64,000 nt of DNA from NCBI GenBank assembly GCA_049273855.1, contig JBASRN010000012.1, positions 4,666 to 68,665 on the forward strand, read 5' to 3'. This DNA is from Blastocatellia bacterium. Its GTDB lineage: Bacteria; Acidobacteriota; Blastocatellia; UBA7656. Of the stretch, positions 27,595-52,346 are shown piece after piece (positions within the stretch are counted from its first letter, which is position 1; every line of letters starts with the position of its first letter). A program made the position numbers and the translations under genes. The notes beneath the pieces are model-generated. The model was not told where the DNA came from. It ran no database searches and saw nothing but the letters and a program-made list of their open reading frames with translations.

Positions 27595-27716
27595 CGCATA
27601 CCGGGTTCATCTTTAATGCTTGCGAAGATTCACTACAAACGAAGCGTCATAACCAGCCGGCGGCTTTCAGGGCGAGGACTGATTCTTACCCGATTCATAA
27701 GGAAGGAAAAGGCGAA

Positions 27717-28013
27717 GTGGCAGAGCCGAAGGAAGAATCGTCGAAGGGGCCGCATCCATCAAGGAGTCTCATTTCGCGAGCAGAGGGCTACGGAATCGCG
27801 GCCGGCTACGAGAGGCCGTATCGGCGGCGGCGGACTGCTGAACCGCACGTGCGCCAAAAGGACGAATATGGCCCAATCCCGGATTCGGGCTATTACGGCT
27901 CAGGAGAATCAGCTCGCCCCTTCAAGCGAGGACAAGCCGGCTACAGAGAAGAACTGCTCTGGTATCAACCTCAATACGGCGAAGAGACAAGCGGATACGA
28001 GCCAACCGAGTGA
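27717..28013 (+). CDS. Possible small Tyr/Gly/Glu-rich hydrophilic protein (98 aa from GTG)
   Basis: AAGGAAGGA SD 9 nt before GTG 27717. The product is low-complexity (..GYGIAAGYERPYRRRR..SGYYGSGES..YQPQYGEETSGYEPTE). Another frame is also open over the same region, so the coding call is weak. Confidence 0.25.
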   Translation: MAEPKEESSKGPHPSRSLISRAEGYGIAAGYERPYRRRRTAEPHVRQKDEYGPIPDSGYYGSGESARPFKRGQAGYREELLWYQPQYGEETSGYEPTE

Positions 28014-28042
28014 ACTGCTAGTCGGTTGTAGTTTTGCACCGA

Positions 28043-28429
28043 TCAGCCACGGCTTCGGATCTTCTCTCCAGAAAGCAGCGTACTAGCTTCCCCCGCTTCC
28101 TTAGTGTACCCGGTGCTTTTCTCGACCTGCCAGACCTCTCCGTCTCGGCTTAAGATGTATCCGAGATACTCTTTCTTGAAATTGCCATCGCTTGACGCGA
28201 AATTGTGCGTCAGCGTTGCCGATATATACGCCTTATCGGGAAAGCTTGGGTCGGTATGAAAGAAGTCAACCTTAACCTCTCGAATACCTCGACTCTTCAG
28301 ATGCTGCTCCAGTGTTTTCTCGGCCGAAGACCTCGCGCTTTTGCAAGAGCCCGCGGTGACGGCCAAGCCAATTATGACCAACAGAATGGATAGGCTGGAA
28401 CGCCGAATTCCTGTTTGTATCTTCCGCAT
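28043..28429 (-). CDS. Putative lipoprotein (128 aa)
   Basis: Signal peptide with lipobox-like LAVTAGSC. No known domain. Confidence 0.5.
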   Translation of the reverse strand: MRKIQTGIRRSSLSILLVIIGLAVTAGSCKSARSSAEKTLEQHLKSRGIREVKVDFFHTDPSFPDKAYISATLTHNFASSDGNFKKEYLGYILSRDGEVWQVEKSTGYTKEAGEASTLLSGEKIRSRG

Positions 28430-28482: not shown

Positions 28483-29226
28483 ATGATAGCGGATGAAGAC
28501 AACAAGGATGACACTATGGCTTTGTATGTGAAACAGCTTCTGGCGGGTCGCGATTTTGCAGAGTTTGATGCCTTTGCCTCGCAGATGGCAAACTTTGTCT
28601 ACCTGGTTGGCGACGATGAGCAACGGACGTGCATGATTGTCGATCCAGCTTGGGACATACCGGCCATTCTCGACTTCATCGATCGCGAAGAGATGAGATT
28701 GACCGGCGCACTTGTCACTCATTACCACCCCGACCATGTCGGAGGCGAGATATTCGGTCACAACATATCGGGCTTGGCTGACCTGCTCAATATGCGACCG
28801 GTCATTGTCCACGTGAACGAAATCGAATGCGAAGGAGTGAAACAGGTGACCGGGCTTTCCGACAGCGACTTTCAGAAACACCCCGGTGGAGACGTTGTCG
28901 CAATCGGCGATGTCTGTGTTCGGCTCTTGCACACGCCCGGTCACACACCAGGAAGTCAGTGCTTTCTCGTGGACTCTGTCCTTATTTCGGGCGATACCTT
29001 GTTCATAGGAGGTTGCGGCCGAGTTGATCTGCCCGGCGGCGACCCAACACAGATGTACTACTCACTCACTCAGGTTTTAGGTAAGCTGCCTGATGATACT
29101 CTGCTGTTTCCCGGTCACGACTACGCACAAAAGCCCACGAGCACGATCGCCGAGGAAAAGAGAGAGAATCAGTATCTCCGTATGAGGACCCTCGACGACT
29201 GGAAACGCCTGATGGGCGAGCGTTGA
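28483..29226 (+). CDS. MBL-fold metallo-hydrolase (glyoxalase II-like)
   Basis: THYHPDHVGG and HTPGHTPGSQ metal-binding motifs. 247 aa. Confidence 0.8.
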   Translation: MIADEDNKDDTMALYVKQLLAGRDFAEFDAFASQMANFVYLVGDDEQRTCMIVDPAWDIPAILDFIDREEMRLTGALVTHYHPDHVGGEIFGHNISGLADLLNMRPVIVHVNEIECEGVKQVTGLSDSDFQKHPGGDVVAIGDVCVRLLHTPGHTPGSQCFLVDSVLISGDTLFIGGCGRVDLPGGDPTQMYYSLTQVLGKLPDDTLLFPGHDYAQKPTSTIAEEKRENQYLRMRTLDDWKRLMGER

Positions 29227-29350
29227 AAGTCACGAGAATCGGTTGACGGCAAAGCCTCCGAATGACTCTTCTTCAGTACCGCCCCTTGTTAGTTGTTACC
29301 GGAGCGGGTTATGCCGGGCAGAAATCGTCGTAGATTAGTATTGACTGCTA

Positions 29351-29365
29351 ATCCTTAATAAGGAT
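29351..29365. promoter_or_regulatory. Perfect palindrome ATCCTTA-A-TAAGGAT in the AT-rich region upstream of the chemosensory operon
   Basis: 7-bp inverted repeat with a 1-nt spacer. Adjacent TTGACT -35-like hexamer at 29341-29346. Confidence 0.3.
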
Positions 29366-29586
29366 AATGAGCCCAATTAGTTGGCTGCTCAGTTATCGGT
29401 TCTGCTCCCGTCCTGCGCCCCGTCAGGCCCGCTCTCCGAACATCGATAAACCAGCGTAGGCCTGCCCCTTTTCTGATACAAAAAAGTAAAGTCGACTAGC
29501 CTGAGGTTGTGAAGGCAGCCCGGAGTGCATTCGCCCCATTTCTCTGCCGGTCCTCAGGGTTCAAGATCAAGAAACGGTGAGTATTT

Positions 29587-31908
29587 ATGGACCTGATGGA
29601 AGGAAGCAATCGCGCGGGAGAAGGTGATTCTCATTTAGTGTCGGTTCTCAGCAGAATGGGTTTCAAGTCTCTCAGCGAGAAGCTGACCGTGCTGTCACTG
29701 ACGTTGCCTTGCTTGTTGAGCCTGATTGTCTTCGCATGTGTCTATTTGGGCTTTCACAACACACCGCAACAACAGGTCCTCACTGTTGCTGTGATCAGTG
29801 CCAGTGCAATAGGCCTGCTTTCGCTGTTCGGAATGCTGGGCCTTTCCGTGGTCTTCGGCAAGGGAGTGAGCGTCAGTGAAACCAGGCTCGAAAACCTAGT
29901 CGCCGAGCGCAAGCAGTCGGACTTGGTTCACTCCGCCCTTTACCGCATCGCCGAGATGACAAGTTCGGCAGAGGACCTTCCCGCTTTTTATGACGCTGTC
30001 CACAAGATCGTTGGCGGGTTGATGTACGCGGAGAATTTCTTCATTGCTGTATACGAGCCTTCGACCGATCTAGTTAGCTTCCCGTGTTTTGTTGATGTCG
30101 TCGACACCTCCCCTCAACCACGCAAGTTGAAGCGCGGAATGACCGAGTACGTATTGCGGACGGGGCAGCCGCTTCTCTCCTCCCGCGAGAGTATAGAGCC
30201 TCTCGTTAGGCGGGGGGAGATTGAGGTGATAGGAACCATGCCGGCATGCTGGCTGGGCGTTCCTCTCAAACTCGGAGACGAAAGCATCGGCGTGATCGCG
30301 GTGCAAAGCTACAGGGAAGATATTGCGTTCGGCGAGAAAGAAAAGGAAGTCCTCACCTTCGTCTCGCAACATCTGGCAACTGCACTAAATCGTAAGCGCG
30401 CCGACGAGGCGTTGCGAAGGAGCGAAGAGAAGTACCGCACTATCCTTGAGAGCATCGAGGACGGTTATTACGAAGTCGATCTGGGCGGGAACTTGACCTT
30501 CTTCAACGATCCGGTCTGCAAGCTTCACGGATTCTCACCCGACGAGCTGAAAGGTATGAACAACCGTGACTACATGGATCCAGAAGTAGCGCGTAACGTT
30601 CATAAGGAGTTTAACAAGGTCTTTCGTACCGGTGAGCCGAGCGGCGAATTTTCGTACGCGATAAACCGAAAAGATGGTGAGAAGAGACATGTCGAAGCCT
30701 CAATTTCGCTCGTGCGTACTCCCGAGGGCGAGCCAAACGGATTCCGGGGCATCATACGCGACGTAACCGAGCGCCGAAGGTTAAAGGAATCGTTCGAGCG
30801 AAGTATGGACGAATTCCTGTCAATCGTCTCAAAAGTCTCAGAGGGCGACCTGACCCGCCGGGGTGCCCAAGGAGATGACACGCTGGGAAGAGTTGTTCAG
30901 TCGGTTAACAAGATGCTGGATCATTTCAGCACCATGCTCACCGAAGTGAAACAGATAGGGTTATCGGTTTCCTCAAGCGCAACGGAAATCCTTGCAGCCG
31001 CAGAGCAGATTGCGGTCGGCTCGCAGCGTCAGGCCGACGAGATAACTAACACCTCGAGCGCCGTAGAAGAGATGGCCGCATCTATGAATCAGGTTTCCAG
31101 AAATGCAGAAGCGTCTGCCGAAGCCGCTCGGCGCGCGCTCGACATGGCCCAGCACGGAGACAAGTCGGTACGCGACACTTCCGAGGCGATGTCAAGGATT
31201 GACTCCGCAGTCTTGCAGACTTCCGACAAGATGCGTCTGCTCGGCGCTCGGAGCTCGGAGATATCCGAGATCATAGACCTGATCAACGACATCTCCGCGC
31301 AGACCAACCTGCTGGCGCTTAACGCCGCAATCGAAGCCGCTCACGCGGGCGAGGCCGGCCTCGGATTCAGCGTTGTGGCGGACGAGATCAGAAAACTGGC
31401 CGAGCGCTCGGCTCGCGCCACCAAAGATGTGGCGAGCTTGATCAAGTCGATCCAGAACGAAACCTCGGAGGCCCTCCTGGCGATGGAAGCCGGTATGAAC
31501 GAGGTCAAAGGCGGAAGCTCATTAGCGTCGCAAGCGAGTCGAGCGCTTCAAGATATATCCGCGGCCGTACGCCAGTCATCTGAGCTTATCGAGGAAATCT
31601 CGGCAGCCTCCGACGAGCAGGCTCGCGTCACTAGCAATCTAGCCGGCGCAATGCAAACCATCTCGAGCATTACGCTCGAGACCTCGGCCGGTGCTCACGA
31701 GACGGCGCAAACGATTCAGGGCATGGTAGGGCTCTCGGATCGGCTTAACCGTGCCATTTCGCAATTCCGAGTCCAGGACGACTTCATACATCCGTTCGCC
31801 TACGACCCGCCGACTTCAGCAGGCGGAGTTATCGGGCACAGTTCTCAGTCCTTTCGATTGCGACAAGCTGACCGAGTGCGGGACCAGGGAGGCGCGAGTG
31901 ACCGTTAG
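29587..31908 (+). CDS. Methyl-accepting chemotaxis protein with N-terminal TM helices, GAF and PAS sensor domains
   Basis: Two N-terminal TM segments. GAF-like region (..IGVIAVQSYREDIAFGEKE..). PAS (EEKYRTILESIEDGYYEVDL..). MCP signalling domain (LLALNAAIEAAHAGEAGLGFSVVADEIRKLAERSA). Confidence 0.9.
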   Translation: MDLMEGSNRAGEGDSHLVSVLSRMGFKSLSEKLTVLSLTLPCLLSLIVFACVYLGFHNTPQQQVLTVAVISASAIGLLSLFGMLGLSVVFGKGVSVSETRLENLVAERKQSDLVHSALYRIAEMTSSAEDLPAFYDAVHKIVGGLMYAENFFIAVYEPSTDLVSFPCFVDVVDTSPQPRKLKRGMTEYVLRTGQPLLSSRESIEPLVRRGEIEVIGTMPACWLGVPLKLGDESIGVIAVQSYREDIAFGEKEKEVLTFVSQHLATALNRKRADEALRRSEEKYRTILESIEDGYYEVDLGGNLTFFNDPVCKLHGFSPDELKGMNNRDYMDPEVARNVHKEFNKVFRTGEPSGEFSYAINRKDGEKRHVEASISLVRTPEGEPNGFRGIIRDVTERRRLKESFERSMDEFLSIVSKVSEGDLTRRGAQGDDTLGRVVQSVNKMLDHFSTMLTEVKQIGLSVSSSATEILAAAEQIAVGSQRQADEITNTSSAVEEMAASMNQVSRNAEASAEAARRALDMAQHGDKSVRDTSEAMSRIDSAVLQTSDKMRLLGARSSEISEIIDLINDISAQTNLLALNAAIEAAHAGEAGLGFSVVADEIRKLAERSARATKDVASLIKSIQNETSEALLAMEAGMNEVKGGSSLASQASRALQDISAAVRQSSELIEEISAASDEQARVTSNLAGAMQTISSITLETSAGAHETAQTIQGMVGLSDRLNRAISQFRVQDDFIHPFAYDPPTSAGGVIGHSSQSFRLRQADRVRDQGGASDR

Positions 31909-32401
31909 GCGGCAAGTAGTGGTGTTTAAGATCGGGGCAGAAGAATTCGCCGTCGACATACTGCTGACAAAGGAAGTTCTTGTCCCACGAGAGATAACGC
32001 CGGTACCTGATACTGAGGAGTTTGTTGAGGGCGTGATGAATCTCAGGGGAAATCTCTTACCGATAATTGATTTAAGAAAGCGGTTGAGGGCCCGGGCAAC
32101 GCCAACTCAGCGAGAACACCGCATCGTTATAGCGAACATCGATGATCGGACAGCGGGTCTGATTGTCGACGGTGCTTCCGAGGTCATAAGAGTGACTGAT
32201 GACATGATTGAACCTGTGCCCGACGCCATTTCAGAGATGGGCGCGGGGTATGTTGAAGGCGTCATCAACGTGAGGAACAGGTTTATTACACTGATCGATC
32301 TGCGGAAGGCGCTTTCTGGCGAAGTTCTCAGCGAATTGGATTGCGTAATCGAAGCGCTGTCCCGGCTGCGCGAGTTGCCTCCTCCAGCGAAGGCAAGTTG
32401 A
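31898..32401 (+). CDS. cheW: CheW coupling protein
   Basis: CheW domain (VVVFKIGAEEFAVDILLTKEVL..). GTG start with GGGAGG SD. Overlaps the MCP stop. Confidence 0.8.
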   Translation: MTVRRQVVVFKIGAEEFAVDILLTKEVLVPREITPVPDTEEFVEGVMNLRGNLLPIIDLRKRLRARATPTQREHRIVIANIDDRTAGLIVDGASEVIRVTDDMIEPVPDAISEMGAGYVEGVINVRNRFITLIDLRKALSGEVLSELDCVIEALSRLRELPPPAKAS

Positions 32402-32445
32402 CAACTTGCTTCGCCGGATTGGGTTGTTCGTGAGGTTATTAGCCA

Positions 32446-33303
32446 ATGCATCACATTGGATCAGAGTTACGCCAGCCGGAAATCCTTTCTGACAGTGAAT
32501 TCAAGCTGTTCAAGGACCTGATCTACTTCGAGTGTGGCGTCAGCATTGGAAACGAGAAGCGAACATTTCTCGAGTCAAGGCTAAGGAGAAGGATGGATGA
32601 TCTCGGCATCCGAAGCGGCTACGAGTACTACTGCCTCATTAAACACTCGCAGGGAAGATCGCAGGAGCTCCCATCGCTACTCGACACGCTGATGATATGC
32701 GAGACCGCTTTCTTCAGGAATCAGCCGCAGTTTGACCTGCTTAGGCAAGTGGTCCTACCGGAAATCATCGAGAGGAAGGAACGAGCAGGGACGCGCCTGA
32801 TTCGCGTGTGGAGCGCGGGCTGCTCGACCGGTCAGGAGCCATACAGCGCAGTCATCGCGATGCTCGAGTCACTCCCCGAGGCGCAGACATGGACTCTGCG
32901 GGTGTTTGCCTCTGATCTTTCGTTTACAGCGCTCGAGCGCGCGCAAGGCGGAGTTTATAGGGAGGATCAACTGAAAGGAATCGAGCCTGGCTGCATATCG
33001 AAATACTTTCGACGCGAGAACGGCCACTATGCCGTGAGCGATGCGGTAAAGAGACGCGTTATCTTCGACTATCACAATCTGAAGCACGATAACGGGCTTC
33101 GTGGTCTGGACGTGGTTTTTTGCAGAAACGTGATGATCTACTTTGACGGGAATGAGCAACGGCGCCTTATCGCTCGCTTCGGGAATTGCCTTTTGCCAGG
33201 CGGGTATCTCTTTCTTGGTCACGCGGAGAGTTTGCAAGGTTTGTCGGGCAGATTCTCAATGGTACATCGCAACAAAGGCATTGCCTACAAACTGGAGTCG
33301 TGA
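32446..33303 (+). CDS. cheR: CheR-type MCP methyltransferase
   Basis: CheR N-terminal and SAM-binding domains (RVWSAGCSTGQEPYSAVIAM). Confidence 0.9.
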   Translation: MHHIGSELRQPEILSDSEFKLFKDLIYFECGVSIGNEKRTFLESRLRRRMDDLGIRSGYEYYCLIKHSQGRSQELPSLLDTLMICETAFFRNQPQFDLLRQVVLPEIIERKERAGTRLIRVWSAGCSTGQEPYSAVIAMLESLPEAQTWTLRVFASDLSFTALERAQGGVYREDQLKGIEPGCISKYFRRENGHYAVSDAVKRRVIFDYHNLKHDNGLRGLDVVFCRNVMIYFDGNEQRRLIARFGNCLLPGGYLFLGHAESLQGLSGRFSMVHRNKGIAYKLES

Positions 33304-33309
33304 GTTCGA

Positions 33310-35064
33310 ATGGATGAGCTGAGCAAAGAAGAGCTAGAGCAGTTGCTTGAGGTGTTTCGCGAGCAGTCTGTCCGCATTCTTGACGAGATGGGGGACGATC
33401 TGCTGGCGCTCGAAGCCGGAGCAGCGGACCCCGAGATCATGACTCGACTGCGGAGAGCCGCGCATACGATAAAGGGCGATTCGGCTTGTGTCGGCTTCGA
33501 GGGCGTGACCGAGGTAGCGCACCGTATCGAGGATGTCTTCGACGCGGTTCTGAATGGAGAGGTCAAACTGGAGAGGCGAGTCGTTGACCTGGTGCTGCAG
33601 AGCCTCGATGCGCTCCGAGCCGTTGTTGGCGCGGAGGACGTCACCGATCTTGGCGAGCATACCGTCTCGAGCTTGCTGGCTGGCCTCGGAAAGGTCAGTT
33701 CCGAATCTACCGCTTGTGCGATTCACCACGAGGCGAAGCGGCTGGCAAGGCCGGCGGCGGTAGGATCGGACGCTCAATTGCTGCCCGCGGCGGTCGAGCG
33801 AGGCTCAAGGCCCCGTCGAGAGTTTGTCCGCGTCGAAGCCGGGAAGCTGGATGCGCTTATAAACCTCGCCGGCGAGATGGTGATTGCGCGATCTGTTCTC
33901 AACCAGCCAGGTCCAGAGCTTGGTTGCGTGCTCGCGGCGCATGAGTTGGCAGGCAGCTTCAGCAGCGCCAACGCGCAGATCGGCAAGCTCATATCCGAGC
34001 TTCAGAAGAGCGTTCTCAAGATGAGAATGGTGACGATCGACAACGTCTTCAAGAGGTTCGCAAGGCCGATGCGCGAGCTTGCAAGCGCGACGGGGAAGCA
34101 GATCGAATTTGGGTTCGGCGGCGGTGAGACTGAGCTTGACCGAGCGCTGGTTGACGTTCTCTATGAACCGCTCCTTCACCTGCTACGAAACGCTATCGAT
34201 CACGGCCTTGAAGTGACAAACGAACGAATTGCTTGCAGCAAGCCGGCGGTTGGCCGAATAGCCTTGCGAGCTTATCACGAAGGCAATCAAGTGGTCGTCG
34301 AGGTTAGCGATGATGGTCGTGGGCTAGATTCAGCCAAGCTGAAACAGCGCGCGCTGCAACTCGGCTTGATCTCAAAGCAAGAAGCCGAACAGATGGATGA
34401 CGAAGACGCGCTCGGGCTGGTTTTTCGCCAGGGCTTTTCCACCTCCAAGGAACTTACGCGGCTCTCCGGGCGGGGAATTGGCGCGTCGACAGTCAAAAGC
34501 GTCGTCGAGCAGCTACGAGGAACTGTCAGCGTCAAGAGTCAGTCGGGTGTGGGGACGACGTTCGCGCTTCGGATGCCGCTGACGCTCGCAATAATCAGAG
34601 CGCTGCTATTTAAGGCCGGGGGGCGGCTGTTTGCTCTTCCGCTTCTAGTCGTAAGCGAGATAGTTCGTTTGGACGTCAACGAGATCGTGCACATAGATGG
34701 CCTCGAGGCGTATAGGCTTCGCGATTGCTTCATCTCGGTTTTTAGACCGTGTGACGTGCTCGGATTCGAACGGCGCAAAGGCGGCGTCGGCGCTGCCTTG
34801 AGGGCCGAAAGCCAACAGTTATTTGGCATGGTCTTGGCAACCGGATCGAAACGGTATTGTCTGATCGCAGACGAATTGATTGGTGAGCAGGAACTGGTCA
34901 TCAAGCCGCTTGATAGTCGCTGGTTACAGAACGACGCCCTTGCTGGAGCAGCGGTCCTTGGCGACGGCCGAGTGGCGCTGATTATGGACGCTGAGATGCT
35001 TTTTCGCCGAGCAGTAAAGCAGGAACGAAATAAAGGAGCCGCGAGGGAGACTTATGCAGTCTAG
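33310..35064 (+). CDS. cheA: CheA histidine kinase
   Basis: Hpt domain (AAHTIKGDSACVGF). HATPase (LRNAIDHGLE.., GRGIGAS). C-terminal CheW-like domain. Confidence 0.9.
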   Translation: MDELSKEELEQLLEVFREQSVRILDEMGDDLLALEAGAADPEIMTRLRRAAHTIKGDSACVGFEGVTEVAHRIEDVFDAVLNGEVKLERRVVDLVLQSLDALRAVVGAEDVTDLGEHTVSSLLAGLGKVSSESTACAIHHEAKRLARPAAVGSDAQLLPAAVERGSRPRREFVRVEAGKLDALINLAGEMVIARSVLNQPGPELGCVLAAHELAGSFSSANAQIGKLISELQKSVLKMRMVTIDNVFKRFARPMRELASATGKQIEFGFGGGETELDRALVDVLYEPLLHLLRNAIDHGLEVTNERIACSKPAVGRIALRAYHEGNQVVVEVSDDGRGLDSAKLKQRALQLGLISKQEAEQMDDEDALGLVFRQGFSTSKELTRLSGRGIGASTVKSVVEQLRGTVSVKSQSGVGTTFALRMPLTLAIIRALLFKAGGRLFALPLLVVSEIVRLDVNEIVHIDGLEAYRLRDCFISVFRPCDVLGFERRKGGVGAALRAESQQLFGMVLATGSKRYCLIADELIGEQELVIKPLDSRWLQNDALAGAAVLGDGRVALIMDAEMLFRRAVKQERNKGAARETYAV

Positions 35065-36142
35065 CAAGATTCGAGTGTTGGTCGTAGACGACTCAGCAGT
35101 CATGCGCAAGCTCATCTCGAAGTACCTTGAGAAGGACCCCGATATCGAAGTGGTCGCAACCGCGATCGACGGTGACTTCGCCTTGAGCAAAGTCGATCAA
35201 CTCAAGCCTGACGTTGTTACCCTGGACGTCGACATGCCCAGGATGGACGGGATCACCGTGCTTGGTCACATCGTAGCGAAGCACGACATCTCCGTGGTTA
35301 TGCTGAGTTCATTAACTGCGCGCGGCGCTTCTCTGACCATGCGCGCATTGGAGAAGGGTGCTGTTGATTTCATTTGCAAGCCCGGCGACCCCTCGCAAAT
35401 CGGCACGATGGCGGCTGAACTCATCTCGAAGATAAAAGGCGCCTCGCGAGGAAAGATCGTCGCGGCAAACAACCGGGCCCTCGATATACGAGTCACTAAG
35501 ACTAGACCGGCCTACGTCCCGCGCGGATCGAAAGCTCAGAAGATAGTAGCCATTGGGGCGTCTTCGGGTGGCCCGCACGCACTCAGATACCTGTTGCCGA
35601 GAATTCCGGCTGATCTGAATGCGTGTTTGTTGATCGTTCAGCATATGCCTGAGAGCTTCACTTCTATGCTGGCCCGCTGGCTCGACGAGATATGCGATCT
35701 CGAGGTCAGAGAGGCTACGGAGGGCGATTTGATCGCGCCCGGACGGGCGTTAATCGCGCCGGCGTGCGCGCATATGAAGGTACGTCGAGGTCGTTTTGGT
35801 TGCGAGGTCAAGCTTGAGCGCAGCGCTGTGGTAAATGGCCATATGCCTTCAGTTGATGTGCTGTTTCGATCCGTGGCGGCCGAGTACGGCAAACACGCAT
35901 TGGGAGTAATCATGACCGGGATGGGAAGCGATGGAGCCTTGGGCATTGGCGAGATCAAGAAGGCCGGAGGCACGACATTTGGTCAGAATAAAGAGAGCTG
36001 CTCGGTGTTCGGAATGCCGCGAGTTGCCATCGAAAAGGGCTTTGTTGATGAGATCGTGCCGCTCACTGAGATGGCTTCACGTGTAATAGCCGAGGTGGGC
36101 AGGGTGTCAGTTGGGGAGGAATGCCATGCGTTCAGTCGCTGA
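35054..36142 (+). CDS. cheB: CheB methylesterase/response regulator
   Basis: N-terminal receiver (VLVVDDSAVMR..DVDMPRMDG). C-terminal CheB methylesterase (AIGASSGGPHAL..). Confidence 0.9.
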   Translation: MQSSKIRVLVVDDSAVMRKLISKYLEKDPDIEVVATAIDGDFALSKVDQLKPDVVTLDVDMPRMDGITVLGHIVAKHDISVVMLSSLTARGASLTMRALEKGAVDFICKPGDPSQIGTMAAELISKIKGASRGKIVAANNRALDIRVTKTRPAYVPRGSKAQKIVAIGASSGGPHALRYLLPRIPADLNACLLIVQHMPESFTSMLARWLDEICDLEVREATEGDLIAPGRALIAPACAHMKVRRGRFGCEVKLERSAVVNGHMPSVDVLFRSVAAEYGKHALGVIMTGMGSDGALGIGEIKKAGGTTFGQNKESCSVFGMPRVAIEKGFVDEIVPLTEMASRVIAEVGRVSVGEECHAFSR

Positions 36143-36533
36143 AGAGCCGGCGGTCTTGAAATCGCCGCTGACCTGTTTGATTGTGGATGATTCCGCGTTC
36201 ATGCGATTTCATCTGAAGCGAATGATGGATTCGTTTGACAACGTGGTTGCAAGCGAGGCAGCTAACGGCACTGAAGCCATCAGAGAGTACGGCCGATTGA
36301 GGCCAGACATAGTCCTGATGGACATCGTAATGCCCGGAATCGAAGGTGTCGAAACCGTAAGGCGGATTTGTGACTCGGACCCGGCGGCACGCGTGATAAT
36401 GATCAGCTCAGTCAGCTATCGGGGAAAGGTCGAAGAAGCTCTTGCGGCCGGGGCGAAGTGCTTCTTACCGAAACCGGTCACAACCGAACAGCTCAGAAAG
36501 GCCATCGAGCAAGTATGCTCGGCGGCAAGTTAA
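36126..36533 (+). CDS. cheY: CheY-like single-domain response regulator
   Basis: Receiver domain LIVDDSAFMR ... DIVMPG ... K. GGGGAGG SD before ATG 36126. Confidence 0.85.
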   Translation: MRSVAEEPAVLKSPLTCLIVDDSAFMRFHLKRMMDSFDNVVASEAANGTEAIREYGRLRPDIVLMDIVMPGIEGVETVRRICDSDPAARVIMISSVSYRGKVEEALAAGAKCFLPKPVTTEQLRKAIEQVCSAAS

Positions 36534-36542
36534 GGGATAGAC

Positions 36543-37007
36543 ATGAGGTTAGACTTCGTCAAGATCTTCGTTGACTCGACAAGCCTGCTGTTTAAGGAAC
36601 TCGTGGGTGCATCGGTTGACGTTCCTTCGATAAGCATGAAGGCGAGCCCTGTTGCAGGCAGGGAAGTGATGGCTATCATCGGGCTCACCGGAGAGGCCCA
36701 GGGTCGGGTGATTTTTGACATGGATTTGTTCACCGCCGTTCAGCTTGCCGGGCATATGATGGGAGAGCCTTCACCAGGGTTGACGCCGCTGGTTCGCAGC
36801 TCGATCGCTGAGCTCGCATCGATGGCCATAGGGCGCGCGATATCCAGGATAAACGACCAGGGCACCCGGCTGAAAATGAGCCCGCCTACCGTGATCACCG
36901 GCGCGAATCTCGTAAGCTATGACCAGTGCCTTGAAACGCTGGTGGCGCCGATCAGCACTGCTTATGGCGAAGTGCGAGTCAACGTTACCATTCAGGATTT
37001 GGACTAA
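36543..37007 (+). CDS. cheX: CheX/CheC-like chemotaxis phosphatase
   Basis: 154 aa. CheC-like fold signature (..AIIGLTGEAQGRVIFDMDLFTAVQLAGHMMGE..). Confidence 0.65.
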   Translation: MRLDFVKIFVDSTSLLFKELVGASVDVPSISMKASPVAGREVMAIIGLTGEAQGRVIFDMDLFTAVQLAGHMMGEPSPGLTPLVRSSIAELASMAIGRAISRINDQGTRLKMSPPTVITGANLVSYDQCLETLVAPISTAYGEVRVNVTIQDLD

Positions 37008-37020
37008 AGAGGAGCGCCCA

Positions 37021-37842
37021 ATGACACAGAAGCCTGAAGAAATACTGACAATTTTCTCGAAGAGCGAAGAGCTACTCGAGCTATTCAGGAGGGGCAAGGC
37101 ATTCACCGAGGAACTTATGTGCGAGAACGAACGGCTTCGCTATCGCGTGATCCATCTCGAGACTGAGAAACTTGATCTCTCAGACATGCTGATGAAAGAA
37201 ATCGAGCGCGTCAGGCTTGAGAATAAACAGCTTGCGCAGAAGATAGACTTCCTGGACGGCCGCTTTCACGAGGTTGAAGAAGAAAACAAGGACTTCGCGC
37301 TTCGTTACGTCGAGGTTGAGGAGCAGAACGAAAGCCTCGCAAACTTGTACGTAGCGAGCTACAGGCTTCACTCAACGCTCGATCCGGCGGAAGTAGTTGA
37401 GTGCATTAAGGAAATCCTGGTGAATATGGTCGGGTCGGAGGAGTTCGGCCTCTTCGTTGTGGATGAGGAGACCAGCGAACTGGTGCTTGCCGGCTACGAA
37501 GGCGAGATTGCTCAACGAGTGGAGAAGGGAAGGGTCCCGCTAGGCGAGGGCCTTGAGGGGATGGTAGCAGAAACCGGCGATCCCTTCTTCACAGAAGACG
37601 CAAGCGACGGGGGTGAGGTCTGTGCCTGCATACCACTTAAAATCAAGGAGCGTGTGGTCGGCGTCATAGCAATGTACAAGCTGCTGGCGCATAAGGCAGG
37701 TCTGACACCGCTGGATCATAAGCTTCTCGAGCTTCTGGCGGGACATGCGGCGAGCGCAATCGTAAGCTCAAAGCTCTTCGCGCAAGCCGATCGCAAGCTC
37801 CGGACGATGGAAGGCTTCATAAGCCTGTTGCGCACACAGTGA
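37021..37842 (+). CDS. Coiled-coil plus GAF-domain protein (274 aa)
   Basis: The N-terminal ~110 aa are heptad-rich (LRYRVIHLETEKLDLSDMLMKEIERVRLENKQLAQKIDFLDGRFHEVEEENKD). The C-terminal region is GAF-like. GAGGAG SD. Confidence 0.6.
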   Translation: MTQKPEEILTIFSKSEELLELFRRGKAFTEELMCENERLRYRVIHLETEKLDLSDMLMKEIERVRLENKQLAQKIDFLDGRFHEVEEENKDFALRYVEVEEQNESLANLYVASYRLHSTLDPAEVVECIKEILVNMVGSEEFGLFVVDEETSELVLAGYEGEIAQRVEKGRVPLGEGLEGMVAETGDPFFTEDASDGGEVCACIPLKIKERVVGVIAMYKLLAHKAGLTPLDHKLLELLAGHAASAIVSSKLFAQADRKLRTMEGFISLLRTQ

Positions 37843-37849
37843 AGGAGGA

Positions 37850-38236
37850 ATGATGGACGGCAGATCTTTGTTAGTCGTGGATGATTCGGCGACCTTCAGG
37901 CAGTTGCTGTGCATGAGCTTGCAACGGGTCGATGGGATATCGCGAGATGACATAATGGAAGCATCGGACGGCGCGGACGCGCTTGAGAAAGTAAAGAGCA
38001 ACAGCTTTGATCTGGTCCTTACCGACATACGGATGCCCAGGATGGATGGCTTGGAATTCGTCAGACAAGTAAGGACAGAGCTGCATCGGCAAGACCTACC
38101 CATCATAATCATCAGCACAAAAGGAGCGGAAGAGGATATTGAGCTGGGAATGACCCTCGGGGCCAGCGGCTACTTATCGAAGCCGATTTCGATGACCAGG
38201 CTGAAGGAGCTTGTTACGCGCTTCTTGCCACAATAG
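37850..38236 (+). CDS. CheY-like single-domain response regulator (second copy)
   Basis: LLVVDDSATFRQ.. DIRMPRMDG .. GASGYLSKP receiver signature. Confidence 0.85.
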   Translation: MMDGRSLLVVDDSATFRQLLCMSLQRVDGISRDDIMEASDGADALEKVKSNSFDLVLTDIRMPRMDGLEFVRQVRTELHRQDLPIIIISTKGAEEDIELGMTLGASGYLSKPISMTRLKELVTRFLPQ

Positions 38237-38244
38237 TAAAAGCC

Positions 38245-39420
38245 ATGGAGCTAAACGGCGATCTGAGCGATTTCGCTCTGACTGACATCCTGCAGATATT
38301 GGCGTTAAGCAGAAAGACAGGCACGGTTGTGCTCGAGAACGACATTCTGGCGGGCAAGATTGTCATGGAACATGGGCGCATAACACATGCATCGTTATGG
38401 CCTGGCGAAAGCTTTGTGGATGGATTGGCAACGAGGGAAGTGCTCGGATTAGATATGCTAGGGAAGTTCAAAGAGATAGGAATGCAGGGCGGAGGTATCT
38501 GGACAGTTGAGAGCTTGATCGTCGAAAGCGGGATAATGACTCGAGGGGCGCTTCAAGCCGAAGCAAGACGTCACGTTCAGCGTGTCGTAGGAAAGTTGGT
38601 TGGGCTCGAGAAGGGCCGGTTTGGAATTGCAGTCAACCAAGCATCGGTCCCAAACCTGCTCGACGAGGTCAAACTGAGTGATGGACTGGAAGTCGGCGAG
38701 GTCTTGCTGGGGTCGGCAAAGGAAAGGGATGAAGCGTTTCGCGACAGGCTCGGGTATGAGGAAAGGACGGATGATTCCAAGACCGATGCGTTGAGCCGTG
38801 ACGAAGGGATGGCCGCGCTGGGCACGGATAATGCCACCCAATCAGATGAACGGACGATAACACCGATACGAAATAGCCACTTGGATCGATCCCAGCTGCT
38901 TTGTTCGCTGCTTGCGGAGTTGCGGTTCCACTCGTATGAAGCAGAAGTAAGCCTAGCAATAATGAGATACGCGAGCGAAGTAGCCACGCGCGGCATTCTC
39001 TTCGTGGTGAAAGAGTTTGAGCTTTGTGGACGTGGTCAGTTCGGATTAGGTTCGAACGGGGTCGACGGAACGGCCGATCGGTTTGTCAGGGGATTGCGCA
39101 TTCCGCTTGACGTAGACAGCTTGTTCTCGCGAGTTGTCCGCAGCGGCTTACCCTTTGTCGGTCCAATCCCACGGGATTACTGGAACCTGGAGATATTGAG
39201 CAAGCTCGGAGGTATTGAGCATAATCTGGCGCTGTTCGCGCTGCCGATGTCTTGCAACGATAGAACGGTCTTCGTGATCTATGGTGACAACTATCCCGGA
39301 GGAAGCAATCTAAACGGAATCCGCGAGTTAGAAGCGCTTGTCAGCCAGGCAAGCCTGGTTCTTGAGAAAATATCGTTAGAGCGAAGGTTGATGGATGCCG
39401 AATTGAGAGTCTCAACCTAA
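38245..39420 (+). CDS. DUF4388 (PATAN-like) domain protein
   Basis: N-terminal hallmark GDLSDFALTDILQILALSRKTGTVVL. The C-terminal half is GAF-like/degenerate. Confidence 0.6.
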   Translation: MELNGDLSDFALTDILQILALSRKTGTVVLENDILAGKIVMEHGRITHASLWPGESFVDGLATREVLGLDMLGKFKEIGMQGGGIWTVESLIVESGIMTRGALQAEARRHVQRVVGKLVGLEKGRFGIAVNQASVPNLLDEVKLSDGLEVGEVLLGSAKERDEAFRDRLGYEERTDDSKTDALSRDEGMAALGTDNATQSDERTITPIRNSHLDRSQLLCSLLAELRFHSYEAEVSLAIMRYASEVATRGILFVVKEFELCGRGQFGLGSNGVDGTADRFVRGLRIPLDVDSLFSRVVRSGLPFVGPIPRDYWNLEILSKLGGIEHNLALFALPMSCNDRTVFVIYGDNYPGGSNLNGIRELEALVSQASLVLEKISLERRLMDAELRVST

Positions 39421-39499
39421 AACCGGTTCACGGTGCGTCCGATAATGCAGATTATGTACCAAGAGGGCATTAGCCTTGAGCTTTTTTGCATCTTGCCGT

Positions 39500-40669
39500 T
39501 TACTCGAACGCGTTCAGTCCGGTCAGGTGTTGGCCGATTATCAGTGTGTGTATTTCGTTTGTGCCCTCATAGGTGTACACCGACTCTAGGTTGCACATAT
39601 GTCTCATGATCGGGTAGTCGCCGGTGATCCCATTAGCACCCAGAATGCTCCGCGCTGCGCGCGCGCACTCCAACGCCATTGCCACGTTGTTCATCTTCGC
39701 CATTGAAACATGCACAGGTTTTGCCGTTCCTAGATCCTTCATCCTTCCAACGTGCAAACATAAAAGCTGAGCCTTGCTGATTTCCGTCGCCATATCCGCT
39801 AGCTTCTTCTGCGTCAACTGAAATCCCGCAATCGGCCGTCCAAACTGCACTCTCTCCTTCGAGTACTTTAAAGCTACATCGAAGCAGGACATCGCAGCCC
39901 CAACTGCGCCCCAGGCGATTCCGTATCGGGCTTGCGTCAAACACATCAACGGACTCTTCAATCCCTCCGAACCAGGCAAGAGGTTCTCTTCCGGTATCAG
40001 ACAGTCCTCGAACGACAGCTCGGACGTCACTGACGCTCGAAGGCTCAGCTTGTGCTTTGTCTCGCGAGTCGAGAAACCCATCCTGTCCTTCTCAACAATA
40101 AACCCCCTGATCTCGTCGCCGTCTACTTTCGCCCAGACAACGGCTATATCGGCGACCGATCCGTTAGTAATCCACGCCTTCGAACCGTTCAACAACCAGC
40201 CGTCACGCACCCTTTCGGCCCTGGTCAGCATGCCGATTGGATTCGACCCAAAGTTAGGTTCAGTCAGACCGAAGCATCCGATGACCTTGCCCGCAGCCAT
40301 CTCAGGCAAGTACTTGCGCTTTTGTGCTTCGCTGCCGAATGCGTAGATCGGATACATGCAAAGCGCGCCTTGCACCGACGCAAAGCTTCGTACGCCGGAA
40401 TCCCCGGCCTCGAGCTCCTGCATTACCAGCCCGTACGACACGCTATTCATCCCCGCACAGCCATACTCTTCAGGCAGGTTGGCCCCAAAAACTCCCAGCG
40501 CTCCTAGCTTGGGTATGATCTGGCTTGGAAAGTAACCCTCCTCATAGCACTCAGCTATGATCGGATTGACCTCCGCTTCCACAAACTCTCTTACCGAGCT
40601 TGTTACTAGTTTCTCGTCCTCGGAAAGTAAAGCCAAGATCCCCAGAACATCCAGTCCCTCAAATGACAT
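39500..40669 (-). CDS. Acyl-CoA dehydrogenase, glutaryl-CoA dehydrogenase-like (389 aa)
   Basis: ACAD domains are present (..GLTEPNFGSNP.., YEGTNEIHTLIIGQHLTG). The size and motif pattern are typical of GCDH. Confidence 0.8.
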   Translation of the reverse strand: MSFEGLDVLGILALLSEDEKLVTSSVREFVEAEVNPIIAECYEEGYFPSQIIPKLGALGVFGANLPEEYGCAGMNSVSYGLVMQELEAGDSGVRSFASVQGALCMYPIYAFGSEAQKRKYLPEMAAGKVIGCFGLTEPNFGSNPIGMLTRAERVRDGWLLNGSKAWITNGSVADIAVVWAKVDGDEIRGFIVEKDRMGFSTRETKHKLSLRASVTSELSFEDCLIPEENLLPGSEGLKSPLMCLTQARYGIAWGAVGAAMSCFDVALKYSKERVQFGRPIAGFQLTQKKLADMATEISKAQLLCLHVGRMKDLGTAKPVHVSMAKMNNVAMALECARAARSILGANGITGDYPIMRHMCNLESVYTYEGTNEIHTLIIGQHLTGLNAFE

Positions 40670-41430
40670 TATGTTTCCCTCGAGTCGAATTCAGAATTGT
40701 TCAACCGACCAATGATTTCAGCCACGATCGAAATCGCGATTTCCTGTGGCGATCTCGCTCCGATTCGCAATCCGATCGGTGCGTGAACCTTCATAAGTTC
40801 GTCGCGTGAGAATCCTTCGCGATTGAGCTTGTCAAAAACCGCCAAGACCCTCCTCCTGCTTCCTATCATTCCGACATATCGAGTTCCCGAGCGTAGCACG
40901 CTACGGAGGCAGAGCTCATCATACTGATGCCCTCGCGTCACGATCACTACAGCCGTGTTGAAAGTCAGATCGAGCTTTCCAGATGCTTTTTCGTAATCGG
41001 TCACCAAGAGGTTGATGACCGGGTCCGGAATCCGTTTTCGTGAAGCAAACTCCTCTCGATCGTCGATAACGGTAACTCGATATCCAAGTATCGCGCTCAT
41101 CAACGCAACAGCTTGTCCAACGTGTCCCGCGCCGAAGATGACGACGTGCAACTTGTCTCTTACCAGTTCAACGACAACCCTGGCTTGGTTGCCCTCTGCA
41201 TCCCGGACTTCAATCAGGTCCGCTTCAACCCCTTTCCGGCTCATTTCTTCGACCGCCCTCGAAATACTCTGGGTGATACGTTCATCTCCTATTCGGGGAA
41301 AGAATCCTCCGGGCCGATACACTGTCGTCATCGGGGAACTTCTGGCCGGGTTCAAGACTCTGATAACCGCGATGAGTCGCCCTTCCCTTGTGTCCTCTTC
41401 AAGCGCGCTAAGCAGCGAGTTAACCGGCAT
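40669..41430 (-). CDS. XdhC/CoxI family accessory protein (Rossmann-like)
   Basis: VVIFGAGHVGQAVALMSAILGYRVTVIDDREEF motif. Start placed at internal Met (MPVNSLL..) to avoid overlap with the upstream VWA gene; the longer ORF runs to 41583. Confidence 0.65.
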   Translation of the reverse strand: MPVNSLLSALEEDTREGRLIAVIRVLNPARSSPMTTVYRPGGFFPRIGDERITQSISRAVEEMSRKGVEADLIEVRDAEGNQARVVVELVRDKLHVVIFGAGHVGQAVALMSAILGYRVTVIDDREEFASRKRIPDPVINLLVTDYEKASGKLDLTFNTAVVIVTRGHQYDELCLRSVLRSGTRYVGMIGSRRRVLAVFDKLNREGFSRDELMKVHAPIGLRIGARSPQEIAISIVAEIIGRLNNSEFDSRET

Positions 41431-41524
41431 ACTCTGACACAGAGCTCCGATGGATTGCTCAACCGATTCTGGCAATGACAATGTGCGATCCCTTCCGGGG
41501 CCTATTCCTTGCCCTTTCGTTTCT

Positions 41525-42559
41525 TCACTGTGAAGCGCGATAGGCTGGCCGCGCCCGAACCTGCACACCGGGCCGCGAGACATCCACTCTAATCTTGCGA
41601 TCCCGTGCGTCCTTCTCTCGATTGGTCGGGTAATAGCCCAATAGGTATTGGCGGCGCAGTTCGTCGGCTATCCTGGTAAATGCACCCTGCAAGTCTTGCA
41701 AGGTGTCTGCCCGTTCAAGGATGCCGCCCGACATCTCCGCAAGCTGGTTCAGATACTCGTCCGCCTTTCTGTAGGTGCGGTCGATCTCGCGCTGGGTTCG
41801 AGCGATCTCGTTGAGAACCACGTCATTTCCTTTGCTGCCGAGAGATGATCTGATGCGAGGTTCCACCTTTGCCTCGACATCCGCGCGCGTGCTATAACGA
41901 ATGGGGTAGATTACTATATCTTCGGACTCGATCACTGCATCCAGAGTATCCTCTGCCGCAATCTCGCTGCTGGCTGTGTCGATGCCATCGCTGAAAAGAA
42001 TAACGGCCTTTCTACCCTTGATTTCCTGGAGCCTTTCCCAAACCGCCGTGTAAACAGCTTCATAAACCTGAGTGAACTCTCCGGGCGCAACCGAAACGAC
42101 CGCGCGCTTTAGAGTCTCACGATCACCGGTCAAATCACATTGAACCTGGACGCTGTCATTGAACGAGATCACCATTGCGCGATCTCGCGTCCTCATACTA
42201 TCGACGAAGGCCAGCGCCGCCGATTTAATCTGGTCAACTTGAGCCGCCGTAGAGCCGCTGGAGTCCAGCAGCAACGCAACACTGAACGGCTCCTCTACCG
42301 ATCCAAAGAACTCTATACGCTGCTTCACCCCATCCTCGAAGATCGAGAAGTCGCTTTGCAAGAGATCGGTGACATATCGTCCTCCCGGCGAGCTGACAGT
42401 CACCGGCACTTGAACGAGCGTTGTTCTCAGCTTGATCGGTTCTTCATCTCGATTGACGGGGATTTGGTTTCGATCCTTCTGCGCGAAGGAGGCGAGACTC
42501 AGTGAGATAACCACAAGGCCCCCTGCCCCTAAGTGCTGCCAGTAGCGAAGCCTGTCCAT
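41525..42559 (-). CDS. Secreted VWA domain-containing protein
   Basis: Signal peptide. VWA MIDAS motif (VALLLDSSGSTA .. ILFSDGIDTAS). Confidence 0.75.
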   Translation of the reverse strand: MDRLRYWQHLGAGGLVVISLSLASFAQKDRNQIPVNRDEEPIKLRTTLVQVPVTVSSPGGRYVTDLLQSDFSIFEDGVKQRIEFFGSVEEPFSVALLLDSSGSTAAQVDQIKSAALAFVDSMRTRDRAMVISFNDSVQVQCDLTGDRETLKRAVVSVAPGEFTQVYEAVYTAVWERLQEIKGRKAVILFSDGIDTASSEIAAEDTLDAVIESEDIVIYPIRYSTRADVEAKVEPRIRSSLGSKGNDVVLNEIARTQREIDRTYRKADEYLNQLAEMSGGILERADTLQDLQGAFTRIADELRRQYLLGYYPTNREKDARDRKIRVDVSRPGVQVRARPAYRASQ

Positions 42560-42586
42560 CGCTAACCTCCTGGAGAGAGAAACATA

Positions 42587-43888
42587 TTAGGTCCGACCCA
42601 TTCCAACATACCTGAATCCAGCGGACCGGACCATGTCCGGTTCATAGACATTGCGGAGGTCTATAATGTTAGGCTCGCGCATGCCACGCTTTAACCTACC
42701 CAGATCAAGGCTGCGGAACTGGTTCCACTCTGTCACCACTACCAGCGCGTCGGTTCCGCGAGAGGTTTCATATTCGTCCTCGCAATACTCCACGCCGCTC
42801 AAGAATCTCCGCGCCGCCTCCGTCGCCGCTGGATCATAGGCTCGGATTCTCGCCCCTGCTTCCACCAAGTCCGCGATTATCTTGATCGATGGAGCTTCTC
42901 TCATATCATCGGTCTCCGGCTTGAACGCCAGGCCCAGCAATCCGACGGTCTTGTTTGTGAGATCGGGAAGAAGCATCCGTATCCGATCGATGATCGACTG
43001 CTTTTGAAGCTCATTGACCTCAAGCGCGGCTCGCACGATTCGCACGTCGTAGTTTACGCCCCGCCCGATCGCCACGAGCGCCTTTGCATCCTTCGGGAAG
43101 CAGCTTCCGCCAAAGCCGGGGCCCGGGTGAAGGAACTTGTTGCCGATCCTCCCGTCCATTCCCATGCCCTTTGCGACATCGCGAACGTCTGCCCCCAGCA
43201 GGCTGCATAAGTTTGCGATCTCGTTAATGAAGGAGATCTTTGTGGCAAGGAAAGCATTCGATGCGTACTTGATCATCTCGGCCGACTCGGGGGTGGTGAT
43301 GACAAAAGGGGTCTCGATCAAATAGAGCGGCCGGTATATCTCACGAAGTATCGCAATGGCCTCCTCTTCCCGACAGCCGATGACCACGCGATCGGGCCGC
43401 ATAAAGTCGTTGATCGCCGCTCCTTCCCGTAGAAACTCAGGGTTCGCCGCCACGGAAAAGCGGCTCGACGTAGCGCGCTTCTCCTCGATGATCTTGCGAA
43501 TGCGAGACGCGGCTCCAACCGGGACGGTGCTTTTGGTGACGATGACCTTGTACCCGTTCAGCGATTTTGCGATTTCGTTCGCCACCTCGTCGATCTGGCT
43601 TAGGTCCGCTGATCCGTCACCCGTTGGCGGAGTTCCGACTGCCAGAAATACAACAAGCGACTGTTCGACTGCCCGGCTGACATCGGTGCTGAACTCCAGT
43701 CTGCCGGCGCGAACATTCTTGGCTACTAGAGAATCAAGCCCCGGCTCGTAGATTGGCAGCTTGCCGTCCATAATTTGTCGAATCTTGGCCTCGTCTTTGT
43801 CGACACAGATGACGCTCATACCGAACTCTGCGAAGCACGCTCCAGTAACAAGGCCAACATAGCCCGTGCCGATTACAGCAATGTGCAT
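42587..43888 (-). CDS. ugd: UDP-glucose 6-dehydrogenase
   Basis: MHIAVIGTGYVGLVTGACFAEFG NAD-binding region. Motif GFGGSCFPKD holds the catalytic Cys. Confidence 0.9.
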   Translation of the reverse strand: MHIAVIGTGYVGLVTGACFAEFGMSVICVDKDEAKIRQIMDGKLPIYEPGLDSLVAKNVRAGRLEFSTDVSRAVEQSLVVFLAVGTPPTGDGSADLSQIDEVANEIAKSLNGYKVIVTKSTVPVGAASRIRKIIEEKRATSSRFSVAANPEFLREGAAINDFMRPDRVVIGCREEEAIAILREIYRPLYLIETPFVITTPESAEMIKYASNAFLATKISFINEIANLCSLLGADVRDVAKGMGMDGRIGNKFLHPGPGFGGSCFPKDAKALVAIGRGVNYDVRIVRAALEVNELQKQSIIDRIRMLLPDLTNKTVGLLGLAFKPETDDMREAPSIKIIADLVEAGARIRAYDPAATEAARRFLSGVEYCEDEYETSRGTDALVVVTEWNQFRSLDLGRLKRGMREPNIIDLRNVYEPDMVRSAGFRYVGMGRT

Positions 43889-46699: not shown

Positions 46700-46820
46700 C
46701 TGAAACTCCCACGCTTGAATAAAGGGCATGTAGATAGTAGCAGGCGGGCATCAATCAGCTCAACAGTTTTGTCCGACGCAACATATTCGTAATGGTTGCC
46801 GATCTGCTTGCGCTTCGAGT

Positions 46821-52325: not shown

Positions 52326-52346
52326 CTTGTGCGAACTATCGCTATT

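Follow-up and report, generated by a model that had tools for sequence, protein, structure and literature searches.

A ten-gene chemosensory operon with separate receiver, PATAN and coiled-coil GAF genes is conserved across Blastocatellia

A chemosensory operon was characterized in a 64,000-nucleotide stretch of DNA (hereafter the window) from a Blastocatellia bacterium of the phylum Acidobacteriota (GenBank assembly GCA_049273855.1, contig JBASRN010000012.1, forward-strand positions 4,666 to 68,665). The operon occupies positions 29587-39420 of the window on the plus strand and consists of ten tightly packed genes, separated by 6-44 nt or overlapping, in the order MCP-CheW-CheR-CheA-CheB-CheY1-CheX-CC-GAF-REC2-PATAN-GAF*. 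Here, MCP denotes the methyl-accepting chemotaxis protein, CC-GAF a coiled-coil GAF protein, REC2 a second single-domain receiver and PATAN-GAF* a protein that joins a PATAN (DUF4388) domain to a C-terminal GAF-fold domain (GAF*). An initial annotation of the window had delineated this module, and all of its domain calls held, as the Pfam domain calls for all ten genes lay above the curated gathering cut-offs. NCBIfam agreed with the assignments of the che core and contained no model for the last proteins. The cluster ends, as had been proposed, before a convergent gene, which encodes an acyl-CoA dehydrogenase (39500-40669, minus strand). Protein matches assign the window to Blastocatellia, and the closest public relatives of the PATAN protein of the window showed 72-86% identity to it.

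The receptor gene (29587-31908) encodes a protein of 773 aa with a membrane hairpin (residues 31-96), a GAF domain (residues 130-267), a PAS domain (residues 281-395), a HAMP domain and an MCPsignal domain (residues 512-696). Hydrophobicity analysis placed hydrophobic segments at residues 31-58 and 62-96, which are separated by a loop of 7 residues. Because the two segments are joined by such a short loop, the receptor is read as membrane-anchored with cytoplasmic sensors; the cytoplasmic location of the GAF and PAS sensors given in the initial annotation was thus retained, while a receptor free in the cytoplasm was not. The alignment with Pseudomonas PcaY (6s18) was gapless from the HAMP domain to the C-terminus, and the receptor was longer by 14 + 14 residues than the 36-heptad (36H) receptor Tsr from E. 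coli. By this PcaY/Tsr alignment, the receptor is of the 40-heptad (40H) class.

The next four genes complete the che core. The first in-frame start of cheW (31751-32401; Pfam CheW, 121 bits) overlaps the receptor gene; the true start probably lies near 31898, which would give a protein of approximately 167 aa, and the orthologues contain 171-173 aa. The CheR methyltransferase (32446-33303; Pfam CheR_N and CheR) showed 63-89% identity among orthologous operons. The CheA kinase (33310-35064, 584 aa) contained Hpt, dimerisation, HATPase_c and CheW domains; its single Hpt domain carries the phosphorylatable His52 in the motif HTIKG, and no P2 match and no receiver domain were found in it by Pfam. 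The CheB methylesterase (35054-36142) has an attached receiver and the catalytic motifs GASSGG, QHMP and GMGSDG, and it scored 406 bits against a cut-off of 293 for the model NF001965. The residues for phosphotransfer and catalysis were complete in CheA, CheB, CheY1 and REC2. A receptor signalling domain, CheW, and a CheA with Hpt, kinase and CheW-like domains were all present, as were CheR and CheB with their catalytic residues and receivers with an acceptor Asp. Judged by these domains and residues, the operon is a complete chemosensory pathway with methylation-based adaptation.

CheY1 (36111-36533) is a single-domain receiver with Asp26, Asp27, Asp70, Ser99 and Lys121 at the conserved positions. 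The CheX-like protein encoded next to it (36543-37007, 154 aa) matched Pfam CheX (PF13690) with 55 bits against a cut-off of 27. The active-site motif of the CheC/CheX/FliY family is D/S-x3-E-x2-N-x22-P. The protein matched this family by sequence and lacked the E-x2-N element, as its active site reads E90-L-A-S93 (nt 36810-36821) rather than E-x-x-N. Its whole length could be aligned without gaps with solved CheX/CheC-like proteins that carry E-x-x-N, namely 3hzh (EVGN), 1squ (ELGN) and 3iic (ELTN). The E-x-x-S form was present in all of the orthologues (23/23), and the CheX-like protein was the most conserved protein of the operon. Compared with CheX from Thermotoga maritima and Borrelia burgdorferi, it belongs to the same family and fold class and keeps the Glu and the downstream Pro, whereas the catalytic Asn of those proteins is Ser in every window-type orthologue. 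The activity of the CheX-like protein is uncertain for this reason, and the Asn-to-Ser replacement suggests that it may bind phospho-CheY with weak or altered phosphatase activity.

The CC-GAF gene (37021-37842) lies in an open reading frame (ORF) that opens at 36919; the real start is 37021, which gives 273 aa as in all orthologues. The protein consists of a helix (residues 5-118) and a GAF domain (residues 122-261) matched by Pfam GAF_2 and GAF_3, with 51.7 bits for GAF_2. The AlphaFold model (predicted local distance difference test (pLDDT) score of 83) revealed a single helix of approximately 115 residues followed by the GAF domain, and the long helix of the model is a probable dimeric coiled coil. 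Using Foldseek, we found the closest solved fold to be the cAMP-binding GAF domain of Lcd1 (5w10; E 3e-10, template modelling (TM) score of 0.70). Orthologues share 66-93% identity, and the stretch VEEQNESLANLYVAS is invariant among them. Where the coiled coil meets the GAF domain, residues 96-113 form an invariant helix stretch, YVEVEEQNESLANLYVAS, which holds E-x-x-N and a Gln and is reminiscent of the catalytic residues that CheX and CheZ carry on a helix. Conserved cysteines were present at C128 and in a C-A-C motif at 201-203. A database annotation of CC-GAF as a methionine sulfoxide reductase was set aside on the basis of the cysteine spacing of those enzymes, from which the spacing of C128, C201 and C203 differs.

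The last two genes encode REC2 (37850-38236), a single-domain receiver with Asp11, Asp12, Asp58, Thr90 and Lys111, and PATAN-GAF* (38245-39420, 391 aa), in which a PATAN/DUF4388 domain (residues 1-170), a disordered linker (residues 171-229) and a GAF-fold domain (residues ~230-390) follow one another. The PATAN domain scored 60.5 bits against a cut-off of 25 for Pfam PF14332, and a four-helix insertion within it was observed in the AlphaFold model (pLDDT 74). A sequence search identified no solved structure for the PATAN protein. The C-terminal domain carries the motif YGDNYPG and was similar to GAF domains in the Foldseek comparison (3eea; TM score of 0.70-0.72, E ~7e-6). This GAF* domain had no Pfam match in the window protein, and in a relative (P0275) the corresponding region scored above the GAF_2 cut-off of Pfam. 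A common origin of the GAF domains of CC-GAF and PATAN-GAF* was also considered, and a profile-profile comparison detected no relationship between them. PATAN and receiver are not fused as in PatA-type proteins; each has a gene of its own in the window, as in every Blastocatellia orthologue.

To define the conservation of the operon, we scanned one genome per species for relatives of the PATAN protein and compared the 76 loci so obtained with the ten window proteins by tblastn. The full ten-gene order was found in approximately 25 Blastocatellia/Acidobacteriota genomes, wherever the contig was long enough, and it persisted where the PATAN protein was as little as 41% identical. Among the carriers are the metagenome-assembled genomes JBBPIE01 ('Ca. 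Onstottus arcticum'), CAVTUR01, QHVH01 and Chloracidobacterium sp. UBA7656. Two more metagenome contigs (L077 and L078) showed the same order by their called genes. In these two contigs the nine genes downstream of the receptor were unchanged, and the sensor part of the receptor was swapped, for dCache_1 and HAMP in L077 (1154-3598) and for several PAS domains in L078 (1129-3504). The genes flanking the operon, an MBL-fold gene on one side and an acyl-CoA dehydrogenase-XdhC-VWA-UDP-glucose dehydrogenase series on the other, were common to closer relatives only; the distant genomes kept the ten genes among different neighbours. The shared flanks are probably plain chromosomal synteny, and the flanking genes were excluded from the module because only the closer relatives share them.

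The last three genes, CC-GAF, REC2 and PATAN-GAF*, were co-inherited with the che core across Blastocatellia, and they are joined to the che genes by gaps of 7-13 nt. The initial annotation had left it to relatives to decide whether these three genes belong with the che genes, and the order kept in the approximately 25 genomes, including those with differing flanks, bears out their synteny. One Blastocatellia locus (L021, 7606-11188) contained an eight-gene operon without CheY1 and CheX that retained CC-GAF, REC2 and PATAN-GAF*, with a gap of 47 nt from CheB to CC-GAF. REC2, not CheY1, is the receiver that is always kept. The species-level genome scan gave no PATAN-GAF* match in the Pyrinomonas genome. 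An Acidobacteriota paralogue of PATAN-GAF* with approximately 35% identity and no che genes nearby was found in five loci (L025, L027, L028, L029 and L031, ~10001-11170); in L028, its neighbours were metabolic and housekeeping genes.

Full-length relatives of PATAN-GAF* outside Blastocatellia, with 24-37% identity, were identified in Desulfuromusa, Malonomonas and Geopsychrobacteraceae and also in unclassified bacteria. In both groups the PATAN-GAF* gene is followed by a receiver gene, whose product scored 84-111 bits against REC2, compared with 0-60 bits against CheY1; at several of these loci CheA, CheW, MCP and CheR come next. No homologue of CC-GAF or of the E-x-x-S CheX was found at the PATAN-GAF* loci outside Blastocatellia. 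This distribution points to REC2 and PATAN-GAF* as an older pair that occurs in several phyla, and to CC-GAF and the atypical CheX as a Blastocatellia-specific addition. In the cultured Desulfuromusa kysingii DSM 7343 (L057, 7753-14978), PATAN-GAF* and two receiver genes lie between the GTPase gene der and leuS, and no che genes were found within 10 kb. In Malonomonas (L034), a full che cluster comes after the corresponding position. A link of these Desulfuromusa and Malonomonas clusters to the 'beta group' che clusters of Geobacter is possible.

The receiver and the PATAN protein are fused in other lineages. An exhaustive profile search revealed a PATAN-GAF* family of 300 clusters (50% identity) at E<=1e-30, and 49 of its best 150 representatives were at least 500 residues long. 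Among ten long members examined, eight were PATAN-REC-GAF* proteins with the receiver between both domains; a ninth contained two receiver stretches, of which the better-scoring one was N-terminal to PATAN and mirrored the gene order of the window. In unclassified bacteria, PATAN-REC-GAF* is a single chain of approximately 600 residues. Proteins that are separate in one lineage and joined in another classically work together; REC2 is therefore taken as the cognate receiver of PATAN-GAF*, and this pattern is the best available evidence that REC2 would drive PATAN-GAF*. At the locus L072 (9881-19198), the fused gene (600 aa) is followed by genes for REC, CheA, an AAA_22 ATPase, CheW, CheW, MCP and a zinc-ribbon receiver, and the same series was also found in L038, L042, L048, L054, L055, L060 and L068. 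The AAA_22 protein resembles the ExeA/MshM-type ATPases of secretion and pilus systems.

The surroundings of the operon were surveyed by Pfam scans of the approximately 40 large ORFs of the 64-kb window, which revealed fatty-acid oxidation, cytochrome c maturation, peptidase and sugar-nucleotide genes. The initial annotation had seen no flagellar genes nearby, and neither flagellar nor type IV pilus genes were found among these ORFs. The same scans gave no MglA/MglB genes near the operon, and no PilB/PilT-type Walker A motif was present in the window or in any of 78 related loci. Upstream of the operon lies the MBL-fold hydrolase gene (28483-29226), and downstream the acyl-CoA dehydrogenase-XdhC-VWA-UDP-glucose dehydrogenase block (39500-43888); the genes downstream include an epimerase gene as well as that for UDP-glucose dehydrogenase. 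A candidate sigma-70-type promoter, TTGACT-16-GATAAT (29341-29368, plus strand), with 10/12 consensus matches is located 219 nt upstream of the receptor start, in a region where such sites were no more numerous than expected by chance. Similarly, the terminator-like hairpin and subsequent T-run that lie past the PATAN gene, before the convergent gene (39464-39477, plus strand), are weak, with a 5-bp stem, and terminator-like sites were counted at chance level. A 1196-aa protein with helix-turn-helix domains, TPR repeats and a sigma-54 activator module is encoded 4 kb upstream of the operon (21960-25550), and a sigma-54 activator is likewise found upstream of the operon in L078. The sigma-54 control that the activator gene suggested was rejected, as no -24/-12 site was found upstream of the receptor gene and matches across the window were at chance level. 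Elsewhere in the window, cytochrome c maturation genes (ResB, CcsA-like) lie beside a gene with a cytochrome c554-type domain (48445-54571), and four ORFs had no Pfam match: 25805-27472 (555 aa), 27616-28086 (156 aa), 45428-46729 on the minus strand (433 aa) and 9622-10488 (288 aa).

We propose by analogy, at about an even chance, that the operon encodes a chemosensory pathway that is not flagellar and whose output, a split PatA-type regulator, acts on type IV pili or cell polarity; on the same kind of comparison, its role probably lies in behaviour on surfaces and not in ordinary swimming. CheA would phosphorylate CheB, CheY1 and REC2, and phospho-REC2 would then bind PATAN-GAF* and free or re-localise its PATAN domain, a step modelled on the fused receiver of cyanobacterial PixG and of the PATAN-REC-GAF* relatives. 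The PATAN domain would in turn target machinery for motility or polarity, for which the type IV pilus motor (PilB/PilC) is the most likely candidate. CheY1 and the CheX-like protein may form a dispensable side branch, which would act as a drain or buffer for phosphate or counteract REC2, and CC-GAF may serve as a dimeric coiled-coil scaffold or as a small-ligand input to the output complex. In the Tax systems of Synechocystis, PATAN-REC regulators have been reported to bind the pilus ATPase PilB1 as well as PilC, the platform protein; the PATAN domain by itself is sufficient as output. The CheA homologue phosphorylates both PixG (PATAN-REC) and PixH (CheY), two regulators with opposing actions. 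The type IV pilus ATPase PilB is known in a member of Blastocatellia, Chloracidobacterium.

Several points weigh against this proposal. The pilus target rests on analogy because the 64-kb window contains no pilus genes and neither the window nor any of the 78 loci yielded a PilB/PilT Walker A motif. The CheA has one Hpt domain and no receiver, in contrast to the form with several Hpt domains and a receiver that is typical of the type IV pilus (Tfp) class. CheB and CheR are present, while temporal adaptation is described as unnecessary for the Tax systems, for which no dedicated phosphatase is known. Pyrinomonas, an isolate of Blastocatellia, carries a near-complete flagellar gene set; the premise that Blastocatellia have no flagella was therefore rejected, and flagella cannot be assumed to be absent in the source organism. 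Finally, the contact between REC2 and PATAN, the phosphotransfer and the activity of CheX are all predictions, and ligand binding by the two GAF domains is putative. A bolder version, which we regard as rather unlikely, is an undescribed chemosensory class in which the CC-GAF scaffold, REC2 and PATAN-GAF* would form a device that merges phosphorylation by CheA with a small-molecule signal read by GAF domains and sets pilus activity or polarity. The Asn-less CheX would in that case have turned into an adaptor that binds phospho-CheY, and its catalytic role may have passed to the invariant E-x-x-N/Q face of the CC-GAF helix.

Other explanations place the output of the operon elsewhere. An alternative-cellular-function (ACF) pathway, which is possible but somewhat unlikely, would regulate exopolysaccharide, biofilm matrix or development, with the GAF proteins as adaptors or second-messenger receptors. 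The gene order MCP-W-R-A-B-response regulator is like that of Wsp, the GAF domain of CC-GAF is closest to a cAMP-binding GAF domain, and the absence of flagellar or pilus linkage that marks ACF systems was observed within the 64-kb window, as was the absence of PilB/PilT Walker A motifs in the 78 loci. The output proteins, however, have no enzymatic or DNA-binding domain by Pfam and NCBIfam, and those PATAN domains that have been studied act on pili. The UDP-glucose dehydrogenase and epimerase genes downstream would also suit a matrix function, but the sugar-nucleotide genes are convergent and linked to the operon in closer relatives only. The beta-group che clusters of Geobacter, whose link to the PATAN-GAF* family would be hypothetical, have been reported to affect the extracellular matrix. 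In the accessible part of the table of Berry et al., the one Blastocatellia CheA, that of Pyrinomonas, is classed as ACF and shows the same domain architecture; since the Pyrinomonas genome gave no PATAN-GAF* match, this CheA probably belongs to a different system, and the lead was dropped. The likeness to the ACF pathways Frz, Dif and Wsp that the initial annotation had drawn is kept as a resemblance by analogy.

Ordinary flagellar chemotaxis of the F class, in which CheY1 would bind the flagellar switch with CheX as its phosphatase and the three terminal genes as modulators, is clearly unlikely. Such a system would account for the canonical CheA, the full CheB/CheR adaptation and the CheX-family gene, and the isolate Pyrinomonas does have flagellar genes; the 40H receptor class also occurs in the flagellar F3/F6 systems and does not discriminate between these readings. 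Against it, no flagellar gene was found in the 64-kb window, the catalytic Asn of CheX is lost in all orthologues, and the retention of the PATAN pair is stricter than one would expect if it were an add-on. In addition, L021 lacks CheY1 and CheX and keeps REC2, CC-GAF and PATAN-GAF*, which argues that CheY1 is not the indispensable output. The last three genes might instead be an independent module that merely adjoins the che operon and has no functional link to it, which we consider very improbable. The PATAN-GAF* and receiver genes amid housekeeping genes in Desulfuromusa kysingii, with no che genes within 10 kb, and the Blastocatellia paralogues without che neighbours are compatible with such independence, but the gaps to the che genes are only 7-13 nt, the same junction recurs in approximately 25 genomes with differing flanks, and in other phyla the relatives are again followed by CheA and CheW.

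In the literature searched, PATAN was described only in cyanobacterial, Myxococcus and Geobacter contexts, and no account of a PATAN-GAF protein, of a coiled-coil GAF partner or of the operon was found. The initial annotation had considered the pairing of the coiled-coil GAF protein with the DUF4388 protein as a terminal output to be undescribed; we likewise found no published description of it, although a PATAN output of a chemosensory pathway has its precedent in Tax/Pix. The 'two extra output proteins' of that annotation are better described as a REC2 and PATAN-GAF* pair plus a CC-GAF/CheX addition. What is new is a lineage-wide acidobacterial pathway with a putative split PatA-type output, in which the PATAN protein has an additional GAF domain, a coiled-coil GAF protein is a partner and CheX lacks the catalytic Asn. 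Nothing in the operon overturns the current view, and it yields concrete predictions that can be tested. Acidobacteria are among the most abundant soil bacteria, and signalling, sensing and movement are almost unstudied in this phylum; the operon is conserved across one of its classes, the soil Blastocatellia. It brings together Che signalling with adaptation, the PATAN domain (understood mainly in cyanobacteria) and GAF domains, each so far the subject of separate work, and the split and fused forms of REC, PATAN and GAF* lead to a testable prediction of partner proteins. As the most conserved protein of the operon, the naturally Asn-less CheX is also a useful case for roles of the CheX family beyond dephosphorylation.

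To place the operon among known systems, we compared it with the Tax1 system of Synechocystis (PixG, PixH, PixI, PixJ and PixL). Both are che-type operons with a PATAN protein and a separate single-domain CheY, both have a receptor with GAF-type sensing, and in both one CheA feeds (or, in the window, is predicted to feed) two receivers. Like the Tax/Pix regulators, the window protein has relatives in other phyla that are genuine PATAN-REC fusions; in the window itself PATAN and receiver are separate genes with the receiver first. Additionally, the PATAN protein of the window has an extra C-terminal GAF domain, its CheA has one Hpt domain and no receiver, and CheB, CheR, a CheX-like protein and an extra coiled-coil GAF protein are present; the cyanobacterial Tax systems are not known to have a CheB, CheR or CheX-family gene. 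Binding to pilus proteins has been reported for Tax/Pix, and a link of the window operon to pili is putative. As there is no PATAN-receiver fusion, extra Hpt domains and a receiver are missing from CheA, and adaptation enzymes are present, the module lies outside the Tfp/Tax group as defined.

The Pil-Chp system of Pseudomonas aeruginosa, in which the opposing single-domain receivers PilG and PilH share one CheA-type kinase and set pilus polarity, offers a possible model for CheY1 and REC2. Its genes adjoin pilus genes. It differs from the window in that ChpA contains many Hpt domains and a receiver, and it has no PATAN, GAF or CheX protein. The ACF system Wsp of Pseudomonas has the order receptor-CheW-CheR-(CheW)-CheA-CheB-response regulator, as in the window, and neither system adjoins motility genes. 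Wsp differs in that a receiver is attached to WspE and in that WspR, its output, is a diguanylate cyclase; the output proteins of the window lack enzymatic domains. Frz and Dif of Myxococcus xanthus are chemosensory pathways that act on gliding or pilus polarity or on exopolysaccharide; PATAN proteins are numerous in this bacterium, and one of them, SgnC, is needed for social (pilus) motility. The window has no FrzS, FrzZ, DifB or DifG and no nearby MglA/MglB. Taken together, these comparisons suggest by analogy that the module may work most like cyanobacterial Tax/Pix combined with the two-regulator scheme of Pil-Chp, in a gene order that recalls Wsp.

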